Positions 17,542-32,904 of a DNA stretch of 64,000 nt are shown here, one piece after another; the stretch's first letter is position 1, and each line of letters opens with the position of its first letter. A program made the translations under genes and the position numbers. The notes beneath the pieces were generated by a model. That model was given only the letters and a program-made list of their open reading frames with translations, searched no databases and was not told where the DNA came from. Origin of the DNA: Escherichia coli (GTDB lineage Bacteria; Pseudomonadota; Gammaproteobacteria; Enterobacterales; Enterobacteriaceae); the NCBI RefSeq assembly GCF_044324785.1, contig NZ_CP172127.1, one strand, 5' to 3'.

Positions 17542-18639
17542 ATTAAGGAAAGCGACCGCCGCCGTGAATTTTTAATGTTCATTGCAGATTATCGTGGGCT
17601 GGAAATGATAACGGTTGGGGAGTTATTGTTTAGTTGCTAAAACAGAACGATAACCAACCCCAACCGTTCTCAATTTCGAATACTATCTTTTCCATTTATC
17701 TCTGGATAGGCTTTGACGTCGTCCCTACTGAGTAAAATCCCCCTCATCATCCACCTAAAACCGATTGAAAACGGTCATTACTCTTGTGGCAAACAGGCTA
17801 AAGCCGTTCACGATGCTTCACTTCGCACCTTATCGTAATGAACAATACTGGTATTTCCAGTTCAGTTACGCCTACCCGTCTACCGCATTCTTTGCCCTAA
17901 CTGCGGCATAGTTCGGGATTATATCAGCTGGCTAAAGCCTTATGCTCATCAGACCACATGACTCATTGAGCATGTTGAGGCGTTACTCAAAATCTTGCCG
18001 ATTAAACATATTTCGTAATTTCTTACCCTGCACTAACATATCATCAATACTATCGACAAACGTCAGTTGCAAATAGAGGTCACAGGGTCTGATTGATGTA
18101 CTGTCAAGGCCGGGTCATGAAAGAGTTTGCCCTGTTCAAAGCTCATCGTTACGCACCGTCGTAGCCGATGCGGATACTCATCAATCCTCTGGATAGGTGA
18201 GGTGCGTAGTAGAGAAGCTCGGTCGTTTTTCGTTAATCTGAATCAGTACTGTCAACATATTCAAGTCGTTAATATGGATATGAATACCTCCTTTGACCTA
18301 GAGGTACAGATGCACTACCCCCCAAGCTGTCAACGACGGATGAAAAGTGGCTCTTCCGCAACCTGGATGGAGATTTTCATGCCAGTGGACTCATGACCCT
18401 CTGCCTGAGTAGTTCAAATCCGGCTCGACCATACATCTGGCCTTTCAGCATTTTTAGCCAATTTACATGACTTTCGACCACCCCCCATTATTCCAGCGAC
18501 TGCTGATTGCCTCACATATAGCCGCAGCATCAGCTACCATCCTTGCAGCCACGCGCCGAAGTTACCACTTTCTCGTTGCTCTTTTAACCACTCCCTCCAT
18601 GGGTCCAGAAGTCCTCGCTCTGGAGGCCGGGTTGACATT

Positions 18640-19539
18640 TCAGGGAATGTTCCTGAACACACCCAGAGACTGACTGTCACACGTGATAAGCCTGTAATAC
18701 GGGATAAGCCTGTAATACGGGATAAGCCTGTAATACGGGATATTTCCCCTGAACCCACATCCCTTGTTATGTAGTGCCATAACCTCTGTCCAACGCTGAT
18801 GCCGTTTTTGGCGGGTTTGCTGTTTAAGGCGTTCCGGACGACGGAGCGATGCTACAGGCACAGACAGTACTGGCTTAGGTGATTTCTTTGGTGACAACCC
18901 ACTGGCAACAAGACGTATCAGAGGCATCTGTCTGTACATCATTCGTTCAGGCGCATCGCCAATATTTTTTAGCAGGTGCCATCGATCAGCTATCTGTCTG
19001 GCCTGAGGTGCACCTTCACGTGCTGCTGTCGCATAGACTCCGCCACGGTCACGTGAGACAACCTGTATTTCCGGATATTTTCTGAACCAGGTCGCCAGCG
19101 TACTCTGATCGCAACCGGGAAGCAGGACGAGGGGACGGTGAGTATCAAGATTGACAATTAACGTGCCGTAATGGTGGCCCCGATGCCACGCCCACTCATC
19201 AATACCGACATGAGGCGCGCCCGACTGTTTCGTCTCCGGGGTATTAATAACCCTGCGAAGAAGAGTATCAGCACTGCAACGGAGCCCCACTGCCGTTGCT
19301 GCCTGTTTCCCGGCCTCACCTCCGGCTATTAATCCCAGTTGATGTTGTAAATTTTGTAACACCTGTGAAGAATGCTGGGAGTGAACCGGCGAAGGGGGCA
19401 AGCGACCCGGCAAAAATTTTACGTGAACAAGCCGGGTTACGGCAGTACCAGTGGCGGACGGAAAATACAAGCCATAGCGTCTGCCCTGAGCAGGGTAGAT
19501 GCTGTATCCGGCGCCGACGATAACTATGAACAGAGTCAC
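18640..19539 (-). pseudogene. ISL3-family transposase fragment, 5'-truncated at the IS1 insertion, with repeat-containing C-terminus
   Basis: ...HVGIDEWAWHRGHHYGTLIVNLDTHRPLVLLPGCDQSTLATWFRKYPEIQVVSRDRGGVYATAAREGAPQARQIADRWHLLKNIGDA resembles the ISL3 transposase core; the N-terminal part is missing. Confidence 0.55.
18685..18738 (+). repeat. 18-bp perfect tandem repeat x3 (GATAAGCCTGTAATACGG)
   Basis: Three identical 18-bp units, read in the minus-strand ORF as (IPYYRL)x3. Confidence 0.9.
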
Positions 19540-19716
19540 TACGCTTAAAGCATTCAGGACTTGTGCTGTTTTGCGTTTTCCGTGGAGATGGAGGGTTATA
19601 CCGTCAGAGCTAATAATTTGTCGACTGCATCTCCATCCGCAAGGTAACTGTAGAAGTGTCTGGTGATGCTGCCAACTTACTGATTTAGTGTATGATGGTG
19701 TTTTTGAGGTGCTCCA

Positions 19717-19992
19717 GTGGCTTCTGTTTCTATCAGCTGTCCCTCCTGTTCAGCTACTGACGGGGTGGTGCGTAACGGCAAAAGCACCGCCGGACATCAG
19801 CGCTATCTCTGCTCTCACTGCCGTAAAACATGGCAACTGCAGTTCACTTACACCGCTTCTCAACCCGGTACGCACCAGAAAATCATTGATATGGCCATGA
19901 ATGGCGTTGGATGCCGGGCAACTGCCCGCATTATGGGCGTTGGCCTCAACACGATTTTACGTCACTTAAAAAACTCAGGCCGCAGTCGGTAA
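19717..19992 (+). CDS. insA: IS1 InsA
   Basis: [43 protein letters not shown]... matches IS1 InsA. Confidence 0.9.
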
Positions 19993-20414
19993 CCTCGCGC
20001 ATACAGCCGGGCAGTGACGTCATCGTCTGCGCGGAAATGGACGAACAGTGGGGCTATGTCGGGGCTAAATCGCGCCAGCGCTGGCTGTTTTACGCGTATG
20101 ACAGTCTCCGGAAGACGGTTGTTGCGCACGTATTCGGTGAACGCACTATGGCGACGCTGGGGCGTCTTATGAGCCTGCTGTCACCCTTTGACGTGGTGAT
20201 ATGGATGACGGATGGCTGGCCGCTGTATGAATCCCGCCTGAAGGGAAAGCTGCACGTAATCAGCAAGCGATATACGCAGCGAATTGAGCGGCATAACCTG
20301 AATCTGAGGCAGCACCTGGCACGGCTGGGACGGAAGTCGCTGTCGTTTTCAAAATCGGTGGAGCTGCATGACAAAGTCATCAGGCATTATCTGAACATAA
20401 AACACTATCAATAA
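19911..20414 (+). CDS. insB: IS1 InsB frame (expressed as InsAB' by -1 frameshifting)
   Basis: ORF carrying the IS1 InsB sequence ...[47 protein letters not shown]...; coordinates are the open frame, not a defined start. Confidence 0.8.
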
Positions 20415-20429
20415 GTTGGAGTCATTACC

Positions 20430-21365: not shown

Positions 21366-22631
21366 TCAGAACTCAAAATTCACACCAGCATTCCACGATG
21401 CGGATGACCCACCTGCAGCAACTGCAACTTTTCCTGCCACATTCTCTGTGAAACGGTAGCCCACGCCCACCGCAATGGCCTGCTCATCACGGTAACCACC
21501 AACGGCTGCTGTCGCGTTAAATTTTCCAACACTGTATGGCTGGAAAAGACCGGCCAGTGCCGCGCTCTGGGCTGCACTCTCCCTTAACTCCTTCCGGTTC
21601 TCTTTAATCTGCTCCTGCATATTATTCATTCTCTCTGTCGCCATCTTCTGCCAGGCTTCCGTCAAATCCAGACGATGACTGTTATTCCTTATCGCTGCTG
21701 TATTTGAGGCTATTGCTGCATCCGTCTGCGCCCTGTTCTTCACAAGCACATCGCTGAGATGTTCTGCCTGGCTTTTCGCTTCTTTACGGGCATCCCGTAC
21801 ACTTTTATCTGTATAAGCCCGGGAAACCTGAACTGTTTCATCCGCTTTTTCTTTTATTTCATCCTGAAGAGCAAGAGAAGATGCATCCGTATACGCCACC
21901 GCTGCCGATGTGCCTGCAATAATATCCCTGCTGAGTTCATCACGTACTGCTGTAACCTGACTGTCAGTATGAGCACGGGCATCTCTGTATACACCGCCTA
22001 TCTCACCGCGCAGGGCATCCCCCGACACCCGTACAGCATCTGCAATGGCGTTGTCCATCTGTCCTTTTGTGGCCGCATCACTATCCTTAACACCATCTGA
22101 AACATTTATAATCCGGCGGGTTTCCGGTGCTCCTTTGACACTCTCTCCATATCCCTCAGGCCCGGCACCAACAGATACCACGTTATTTTCTCCCGACACC
22201 TGTGAGCCATGGCCCAGAGCTACAGAACTGGTAGAATCCTGCACAGATGAAAACGCACCAATTGCCGAGCTCTGACGAGAAGAAATAAGTGACGCTTCTT
22301 TTCCTGCAACAGTCCCCCATTCAGAGTCAGCAATAAGTGCATCATGCCCCAGACTCACACTTCCCGGAGAGTTCACAACACCAGAATTATTCCCCAAAAG
22401 CACAGTCCTGTTTGAGTCTAATAAAAAAGAATCATCACCAATCAACCATACATTTCTTACTTTATCAATCGAACGGCCAGCTACTGATTCTCCAACAAGA
22501 AAGCTATTATCTTCGCCAGGTTCAATCGGTCCGATTAAAATATCCTGAGCCTGAGCCTGAGCCGAGAGCAGCAGGGCCACACTCACTGCCAGCGCGCTTT
22601 TCTTTAAAAAAGCATCACGTCTTTTAAGCAT
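21366..22631 (-). CDS. Trimeric autotransporter adhesin (YadA-like C-terminal anchor; Eib/Saa-like)
   Basis: Signal peptide [28 protein letters not shown]; repetitive head, long coiled-coil stalk; C-terminal anchor ...[35 protein letters not shown]; RBS AGGAGA before the ATG at 22631. Confidence 0.7.
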
Positions 22632-29319: not shown

Positions 29320-29500
29320 TAATGAAAACACTTATAGGGCTGTTTATGAAAACACGTGTATGTCTGGTAAAACACTTAGTAGAAAATACGTGTATAACAC
29401 TTACTGAAATGCTTAGTAAAAATACTTAGTAAAATATGTGTAGAATTATCTATTTAAAAAGATATGTATATAACACTTAATAAAAACATGTGTATATAGT
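29320..29500 (+). repeat. Cluster of at least 7 degenerate 11-bp direct repeats (AAAA[CT]A[CT][GT]T[AG][TG]); iteron-like
   Basis: aaaacacttat, aaaacacgtgt, aaaacacttag, aaaatacgtgt, aaaatacttag, aaaatatgtgt, aaaacatgtgt within about 180 bp of an ORF-free AT-rich stretch. Confidence 0.6.
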
Positions 29501-30930: not shown

Positions 30931-31928
30931 CTTTCACTACTTCCACTCCTGGCAGTTTTCCTCTTTTTGTAGTGTCTCCCGGCTGCAGGCATCAGGTACT
31001 TTTCCGTCATTTCGTTGCAGAACTCTTCAATGTAGTTAATCAGCTTCTGGTGTGCTTTCACCTTTTCTTCCCCGGGGGACGCTTTCAGATAAATGTCCTC
31101 CTTTTCCACAAGTGTATTTATAAACTCTCCCGGACATCCCTGGTTATAAAGCAACGTGAAAAACAACACATTCCCCAGTCTCTCCAGTAACTGCGATTTA
31201 ACCCTGTATTGTTGTTTGCTGAGGATTGATTGTTTTATAAAGCTTAGTCTTGTTAAAAGTTGTTCAAATCCCGGTTCCAGTTTAAAAACAGATTTTAATA
31301 CCAGGGACTGATACTCCTGATAAAAAAGTTCAAACGTCGGGGATGCAGACTGACGAACAGATTTGGCTACAACCCATGGACTAAATCCCATGATTGGGAT
31401 TTCCTTCGCTCCCTCCAGCGCACTCAGAGGTAGTCCAGCAATCCATGCGTCCAGCTTAGCCGAATCAATATCCCCGCTCAAAACCTCATACAAACTGCCC
31501 GTGAACGGTTGAGTCGGTTTTTTTGTTGTTTTACCTTCTGATTGCCTGAATCCATCCACTTTTCTCCGGATATTACGCGGAATCAGCATAAAAGGCGGGA
31601 CATTAAGTGATAAACGTTTACCCGTCATACGATACCAGTGGCCCACCTCAACCTTAATCCGTGTATCTGGCCTTGTATCTGGCCTTGTATCTGGCCTTAG
31701 CTCAAGTGCTATTATGTTAAGCAGGTACAGATAACGCACCGTATAACAGTCAAAATGTTTCTCCGGATCAAACGGCTCTGATCGTTCTCTGCACACAAGT
31801 CCGCTGCGCTTCAGTATTCGCTGGGTATCTTTCCAGGCCTTACTCTGAAGAATGGTGGTAACTCTGGCTTTATTAGCAATCTCACGCAGCGCATCACTTT
31901 GTTGTGCCGTCATCTCTTCCCTCCACAC
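30927..31928 (-). CDS. Hypothetical protein (333 aa) with internal (TRPD)x3 repeat, divergent from the YfjP-like GTPase gene
   Basis: ORF convergent with the previous gene (stop codons overlap); in-frame 12-bp tandem repeat; no family recognised. Confidence 0.5.
   Translation of the reverse strand: MWREEMTAQQSDALREIANKARVTTILQSKAWKDTQRILKRSGLVCRERSEPFDPEKHFDCYTVRYLYLLNIIALELRPDTRPDTRPDTRIKVEVGHWYRMTGKRLSLNVPPFMLIPRNIRRKVDGFRQSEGKTTKKPTQPFTGSLYEVLSGDIDSAKLDAWIAGLPLSALEGAKEIPIMGFSPWVVAKSVRQSASPTFELFYQEYQSLVLKSVFKLEPGFEQLLTRLSFIKQSILSKQQYRVKSQLLERLGNVLFFTLLYNQGCPGEFINTLVEKEDIYLKASPGEEKVKAHQKLINYIEEFCNEMTEKYLMPAAGRHYKKRKTARSGSSES
31663..31698 (+). repeat. 12-bp perfect tandem repeat x3 (GTATCTGGCCTT), in-frame within the 333-aa gene
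   Basis: Three identical units encoding RPDTRPDTRPDTR on the minus strand. Confidence 0.9.
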
Positions 31929-32019
31929 TTTGTCACTCCAGATTTTTTCACGTCCATATTACCTGAATGATAAACCGGATTAGTGTGATCCGGTTCAGCG
32001 AAATCAACAGGATACCGGT

Positions 32020-32904
32020 ATGTCATTCAGCCATTCTTCCCTCTCTGCACAAGTGAAATCATATCTGACGTTTCTTCCTGAAGAAATTCGCCAGAAAATC
32101 CTTGAACATCTCCACGGTGTTATTCATTACGAGCCCGTGATTGGCATTATGGGTAAATCCGGCACAGGCAAAAGCAGCCTGTGTAATGCCATTTTTCAGT
32201 CCCATATCTGCGCCACGCATCCCCTGAACGGCTGCACCCGCCAGGCTCATCACCTCACCCTGCAGATCGGTGAACGCAGAATGACGCTGGTCGATCTGCC
32301 CGGCATTGGTGAGACACCGCAGCATGATCAGGAATACCGGGCACTTTATCATCAGTTGCTACCGGAACTGGATCTGATTATCTGGATCCTGCGGGCTGAT
32401 GAACGTGCGTATGCTGCCGATATTGCCATGCATCAGTTTTTACTGAATGAAGATGCCGATCCCTCGCGTTTTCTGTTTGTTCTCAGCCATGCCGATCGCG
32501 TGTTTCCTGCTGAAGAATGGAACGACACAGAAAAATGCCCGTCCCGTCAGCAGGAACTCTCACTGGCGACAGTAACAGCCCGGGTGGCCACCCTGTTCCC
32601 GTCATCATTTCCGGTACTCTCCGTTGCAGCGCCTGTCGGCTGGAATCTTCAGGCACTGGTGTCACTGATGATCCACGCACTGCCACCACAGGCAACCAGC
32701 GCGGTTTATTCGCATATCCGGAATGAAAAGCGCACTGCGCAGGATCAGCAACACGCACAGCAGGCTTTTGGTGACGCCATCGGCCAGAGTTTTGACGCTG
32801 CCATTGCCCGGTTCAGCTTTCCGGCCTGGATGCTGCAGCTTCTGCGCAAAGCCCGTGATCGCATTATCCGCCTGCTGATCACACTGTGGGATCGCCTGTT
32901 CTGA
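32020..32904 (+). CDS. YfjP/YeeP/YkfA-family GTPase (50S ribosome-binding GTPase domain)
   Basis: P-loop GIMGKSGTGKSSLCNAIF, then DLPGIGE (G3); conserved first gene of the CP4-type island terminal module. Confidence 0.8.
   Translation: MSFSHSSLSAQVKSYLTFLPEEIRQKILEHLHGVIHYEPVIGIMGKSGTGKSSLCNAIFQSHICATHPLNGCTRQAHHLTLQIGERRMTLVDLPGIGETPQHDQEYRALYHQLLPELDLIIWILRADERAYAADIAMHQFLLNEDADPSRFLFVLSHADRVFPAEEWNDTEKCPSRQQELSLATVTARVATLFPSSFPVLSVAAPVGWNLQALVSLMIHALPPQATSAVYSHIRNEKRTAQDQQHAQQAFGDAIGQSFDAAIARFSFPAWMLQLLRKARDRIIRLLITLWDRLF

Follow-up and report, generated by a model that had tools for sequence, protein, structure and literature searches.

The tandem array at positions 18685-18738 of the 64,000-nucleotide stretch of Escherichia coli DNA analysed here (the window) is best understood as a neutral minisatellite (VNTR) that would have arisen by replication slippage within an insertion sequence that was already dead, a reading to which we assign a probability of about 0.85. 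The plus strand consists at these positions of exactly three copies of the 18-bp unit GATAAGCCTGTAATACGG, and a partial fourth unit reaches 18742. No strand is assigned to the array; read on the minus strand, it comprises three copies of CCGTATTACAGGCTTATC. Including the flanking microhomology (TATC preceding the first unit and ACGT following the last one, on the minus strand), the whole periodic array of 3.4 units spans 18681-18742, for which Tandem Repeats Finder returned a period of 18, 97% matches and a score of 117, the joint highest in the window together with the period-36 row of the same array. The periodicity is far above chance, the run of self-matches at lag 18 (18685-18742) being 40 bases long, whereas 100 shuffles of the window gave runs of 13 at most. 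A search of both strands found no further copy of GATAAGCCTGTAATACGG elsewhere in the window. An earlier note, made from the sequence alone, had reported three identical units and had stated that they do not form a CRISPR array. Direct inspection and Tandem Repeats Finder confirm both points: the units directly abut, with none of the unique spacers of similar length that separate the repeats of a CRISPR array, and they are arranged head to tail between conserved unique flanks, in line with a minisatellite.

A sequencing or assembly artefact has a practically negligible probability as an explanation. With 54 bp the array is shorter than an ordinary read, and the identical three-unit array is found in four independent complete E. 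coli assemblies, originating from Brazil, China, Japan and Switzerland, so that it can be considered real.

The array resides in a dead, ISEc38-like element of the ISL3 family, which occupies 18328..19661 on the minus strand; its right inverted repeat ends at 18328 and its 5' end is cut by IS1. In the PGAP annotation of a collinear record the gene appears as the pseudogene 'ISL3 family transposase, frameshifted' (18377..19617, minus strand). The longest residual open reading frame (18640..19539, minus strand; 299 aa, GTG start) covers the DDE_Tnp_ISL3 domain in its N-terminal half, and the repeat appears in it as IPYYRL three times. Its match to the Pfam family DDE_Tnp_ISL3 (PF01610; E=4e-17, 63 bits, cut-off 23) identifies the transposase as one of the ISL3-type DDE enzymes and is confined to profile positions 1-137 of 240. 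With the same profile ISEc38, the intact relative, reaches 121 bits; it also contains Zn_ribbon_ISL3. As ISEc38 reference we used the copy on plasmid pE1246_1 (NZ_CP025574.1 5614-7233), which PGAP names 'ISL3-like element ISEc38 family transposase' and which was the closest intact element found. The identity between the two elements is 93.3% at the nucleotide level over 1,294 aligned bases, with large indels present; by the ISfinder convention isoforms share at least about 90% DNA identity with the reference. The Pfam match, the PGAP label in the collinear genomes and the identity to ISEc38 bear out the placement of the repeat, in the earlier note, inside an ISL3-type transposase remnant. The type of right inverted repeat (TGTCAACGACGGATGAAAAGTGG...), the DDE_Tnp_ISL3 domain and the gene order are all shared between ISEc38 and the window copy, whereas ISEc38 has one unit instead of three, and the window copy is frameshifted and lacks the left inverted repeat and the start codon.

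The decay of the element is extensive. An IS1A copy on the plus strand (19662..20429) truncates it: IS1 abuts at 19661/19662, and the left inverted repeat of the ISL3 element has been removed together with about the first 8 codons. The left inverted repeat of the IS1A copy itself (GGTGATGCTGCC...) begins at 19662 and its annotated CDS runs from 19717 to 20414; its end is presumably at 20429, a coordinate that we take from the 768-bp length of IS1 and the position of the CDS. Compared to ISEc38, there is a -1 frameshift near 19560, a +1 frameshift near 19380, a further +1 frameshift caused by one extra G on the minus strand at 18746..18749 (GGGG, or CCCC on the plus strand, versus GGG in ISEc38) and a +2 frameshift near 18486. 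In addition, the element has two 18-bp units more than ISEc38, and an internal deletion of 349 bp relative to it (about codons 363-479), with its junction at 18561..18562 on the minus strand. Of the two terminal inverted repeats of a complete IS only the right one is thus present, the left one having been lost to IS1, and the reading frame is not intact, given the four frameshifting indels, the 349-bp deletion and the lost start codon. The window element is a remnant, unable to encode a transposase or to transpose on its own.

Directly next to the right inverted repeat, in the flank and outside the repeat-bearing element, lies part of a second, different transposase gene of the ISL3 family (18115..18322, plus strand). 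Its match to DDE_Tnp_ISL3 (E=1.3e-4) falls under the Pfam cut-off, and it is labelled 'transposase, incomplete' on p1ColV5155. Apparently, one ISL3 element was inserted into or beside another.

The earlier note had the repeat encode (IPYYRL)x3 in frame with the remnant. This is correct for the longest residual reading frame, but it is not the native frame of the transposase. The IPYYRL frame results from the 1-bp insertion at 18746-18749, just 5' of the repeat on the translated (minus) strand; the ancestral frame in the window (18534..18758) reads ISR-ITGLSR-ITGLSR-ITGLSR-VTV. In ISEc38 the homologous DNA is present once and encodes ...C-S-F-R-E-I-S-R-I-T-G-L-S-R-V-T-V-S-R-W.... Four helix-turn-helix families of Pfam converge on residues 293-338 of ISEc38 (E=2e-4 to 2e-3, all under the gathering cut-offs), and a helix-turn-helix nature of the repeat-homologous segment (FRE-ISRITGLSR-VTV) is plausible, though not proven.

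The residual reading frame of 299 aa starts with GTG and spans the repeat, and the length of the unit is a multiple of three, as one would expect if a transposase-derived protein with (IPYYRL)x3 or (ITGLSR)x3 were made and active. Such a role at the protein level is nevertheless highly improbable. The frame is a frameshift product, from which the native N-terminus is missing together with the Zn-ribbon frame; it contains only the first part of the DDE domain profile and terminates 30 codons past the repeat. The ancestral frame is closed on both sides of the repeat, on one by the insertion of 1 bp and on the other by the deletion of 349 bp. Moreover, PGAP calls a pseudogene in every genome examined, and the unit number varies freely between near-identical strains. 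A functional (IPYYRL)x3 peptide can be discarded, its frame having been made by a 1-bp insertion and the open reading frame being a fragment. Because the gene was already dead, neither the IPYYRL nor the ITGLSR peptide is likely to matter.

The number of units was compared across 5,426 complete E. coli genomes, using exact-allele queries of one, two, three and, synthetically, four units, each with 150-bp flanks. The resulting counts are BLAST identity bins for the best place per record, and hence approximate; in ten fetched loci the units were counted directly. One unit was found in about 80-85 records, and two units in about 106 records at 99% identity or more, mostly ColV-type plasmids (the query span was exact in 60 of the 60 two-unit records listed). 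Three units were found in four records, those of strains 135, TUM9803, Br_112_kylling and GF60, with a second locus in GF60. A four-unit allele was absent from the 5,426 genomes, the best matches of the synthetic query being three-unit loci with an 18-nt gap. Two units also predominate in PLSDB, among others in NC_007675.1 (a record of pAPEC-O2-ColV size) and in K. pneumoniae plasmids; one unit occurs there in six records, and no PLSDB plasmid has three. The comparison of copy number across strains for which the earlier note had asked thus bears out its expectation that the repeat is prone to change, since alleles of one, two and three units exist in otherwise near-identical E. coli loci.

A single unit is also what is found at the homologous site in ISEc38 and in the ISL3 relatives on plasmids of E. 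tarda and K. oxytoca. Copies of the ISEc38 type, at 91-93.5% identity, occur in about 2,970 further records. The copies sampled across the ranking of these records (56) align just as far as the deletion junction, over a span equal to the length of the query minus the extra G, so that each of them has one unit; none (0 of 56) has the extra G. The earlier note had considered that its view would fail if the repeat were an invariant feature of a known IS. This is not the case, as ISEc38, its relatives and all of the sampled copies have one unit. Comparison of these sequences establishes the single unit as the ancestral state.

The order of events can be read from the lesions. Every allele, in each of the three genomic contexts described below, has the extra G together with the 349-bp deletion. 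As these gene-killing lesions are common to all alleles, the death of the gene preceded the diversification in unit number, and for this reason unit variation cannot act through the transposase. We infer the neutrality of the array from this pseudogene status.

The one-unit allele itself points to the way in which the duplication would have started. On the minus strand it reads AAA-TATCCCGT-ATTACAGGCT-TATCACGT-GTG, in which TATCCCGT and TATCACGT are 8-bp motifs, located exactly 18 bp apart and different in one base (TATC(C/A)CGT), both of which encode Ser-Arg after ATA or TTA. The junction within the array, where ...GGCTTATC is followed by CCGTATT..., is the product expected from misalignment at the TATC motif. 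The ancestor would have been an ISEc38-like ISL3 element with one ATA TCC CGT ATT ACA GGC TTA TCA CGT (I-S-R-I-T-G-L-S-R, the helix-turn-helix-like segment), which in this context would already have lost its 5' end and whose transposase gene would already have acquired the frameshifts and the 349-bp deletion. Mispairing of the nascent strand between TATCCCGT and TATCACGT would then have duplicated the intervening 18 bp. Once two perfect units were in place, slippage or unequal recombination could have added or removed whole units, giving rise to the alleles of one, two and three units. As the unit number would be without effect on any protein, there would have been no selection in either direction.

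The window belongs to the chromosome of E. coli, is collinear with strain Br_112_kylling, and covers an island by glnPQ that bears ColV-plasmid-like cargo. At least its first 50 kb (collinear with NZ_CP182371.1 4157410-4207409) make up a composite genomic island next to glnPQ. The ColV-plasmid-like cargo comprises fdrA, a ylbE-like gene, a permease gene and a carbamate kinase gene; the island also contains many fragments of IS elements (IS1, IS3, IS4, IS256 and ISL3) as well as a YadA-like adhesin pseudogene and a CP4-type module (antirestriction, RadC, YeeU/CbtA).

The dead element, with identical lesions, was found in three contexts. Context A is the window-type chromosomal arrangement (carbamate kinase, ISL3, IS1A), in which one, two and three units were seen. 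Context B is formed by the ColV plasmids, with one or two units (one in locus L011, two in L004), and context C by the chromosomal region beside shiF-iucA (aerobactin), with one or three units (one in L010, three in L009). The sequence common to the contexts begins exactly at the end of the right inverted repeat (18328) and extends to about +600 past the repeat. Beyond about +600 the copy in the aerobactin context is markedly more divergent (window 18328-19338 compared to L009 and L010), which suggests that its 5' part is mosaic.

The window (three units), L002 (one) and L003 (two) show no difference other than the unit number in an alignment of 1.8 kb, and a few SNPs over 6 kb. As is characteristic of a VNTR, the unit number differs between strains at one locus. 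It follows from the identical 1.8-kb flanks that the repeat is no slower to change than the entire flank is to gain substitutions. The locus is not hyper-unstable: about 100 ColV-type plasmids, which come from a variety of hosts and countries, uniformly have two units, and no variation is seen within outbreak-like or clonal sets. This uniformity indicates that the observed pattern stems in part from few inherited events.

That one dead element, lesions included, recurs in three contexts shows that the region has been shuffled by recombination, and each allele may have arisen only once, to be moved by homologous recombination or gene conversion among the paralogous copies on the chromosomal island, the ColV plasmids and the aerobactin island. 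GF60 agrees with such a scheme. It has the dead element twice, in a window-type locus split by IS3 (L014; NZ_CP172185.1 3954014-3962027) and beside shiF-iucA (L009; NZ_CP172185.1 3338981-3347332). Both copies have three units, and the context-C copy has the context-A base at +420, with C-type bases further out. This hints at a short gene-conversion tract between the paralogous remnants; the base at -81 that is unique to the GF60 context-C copy is absent from the GF60 context-A copy, and hence lends no support to conversion. We nevertheless consider it unlikely that recombination alone accounts for the alleles. Going from one unit to two and three units takes a minimum of two changes in unit number even then, the conversion tract in GF60 rests on only two markers, and homogenisation is not general, the unit numbers of chromosome and plasmid being different in strains 135, B771 and GF124.3. 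Recombination or gene conversion among the paralogous copies may contribute, and unequal homologous recombination or gene conversion could yield or spread the same alleles that slippage would produce.

In another reading, the DNA of the array would act in cis, either as a set of iteron-like binding sites or as a phase-variable promoter spacer for a neighbouring gene. Direct repeats of 18 bp are superficially iteron-like, and the RepFII repA gene is about 5.6 kb away from the locus on the ColV plasmids. However, the units come from the coding sequence of an IS in whose ancestor they were single-copy, plasmids exist with one unit as well as with two, and IS1 and IS100 are situated between the array and repA on the ColV plasmids. 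Furthermore, IncFII replicons are controlled by antisense RNA and not by iterons. In the window the locus is chromosomal and its neighbours are the remainder of the pseudogene, which is the nearest sequence downstream on the minus strand, and IS1 on the other side. Plasmid iterons are repeats at an origin beside the cognate rep gene; the region collinear with the window contains no rep gene in its first 50 kb. Neither a promoter-like nor a terminator-like site was detected in the array, nor a promoter-like site next to it. The array does not qualify as a contingency locus either, its unit corresponding to six codons, the gene having been dead before the expansion and the array being devoid of a promoter-like site. 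Altogether, there is only a very slight chance that the array acts in cis.

Comparison with known repeat systems places the array in a well-known class, that of the VNTRs, as an undescribed member located in a dead IS. A close analogue is CVN002 of the generic E. coli MLVA scheme (PMC8143711, PMC3407997), which likewise has head-to-tail units of 18 bp and a low, strain-variable copy number and is absent from many strains. CVN002 was a candidate for the array on account of its 18-bp unit, but the array is neither CVN002 nor any other locus of the generic scheme: none of the primers CVN001-CVN017, taken from PMC8143711, matched the window when up to three mismatches were allowed. The window array, moreover, shows only three alleles. 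The unit GATAAGCCTGTAATACGG was not found in the searchable literature, and the papers on ISEc38 that were found are inventories of mobile elements, without discussion of the repeat. With phase-variable contingency loci the array shares a presumed change of unit number by strand slippage, whereas its unit is a multiple of three and switches no frame, its host gene is dead and no expressed gene is placed such that it could be controlled. CRISPR arrays and plasmid iterons are similar in being short direct repeats, but the window array has no spacers and no functionally associated cas or rep gene, and its units derive from a transposase coding sequence.

Three other repeats were observed in the window. 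A perfect repeat of 12 bp (TGTATCTGGCCT; 3.1 copies, 31662-31698) is located within the coordinates of a 'GTPase family protein' CDS of the collinear record (31504-32388). Tandem Repeats Finder further reported an imperfect AT-rich array of 5.2 copies of 13 bp at 29369-29434, and 3.3 copies of CCTGAG at 22544-22563, in the region of the frameshifted YadA-like pseudogene.

Finally, the biological weight of the array is small; it illustrates in textbook fashion how microhomology can seed a tandem duplication that then varies in copy number inside a pseudogene. It is quite improbable that the unit number, together with the few flanking SNPs, keeps a record of recombination or gene conversion that took place within single cells between the plasmid and chromosome copies, for which GF60 provides a hint, and it is still less likely that a protein binds the array or that the array influences the expression of its neighbours. 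If the former were true, the array would offer a simple marker for the transfer of virulence cargo from plasmid to chromosome in avian and extraintestinal pathogenic E. coli. The practical value is modest, the one use that can be foreseen being that of a marker for sub-typing or recombination in DNA of ColV-type plasmids and islands. Annotators and variant callers should be prepared for lengths of this 'ISL3 family transposase' pseudogene that vary by multiples of 18 bp. The polymorphism of one, two or three units splits otherwise identical copies of the region on ColV virulence plasmids and chromosomal islands, and could therefore help in their sub-typing.
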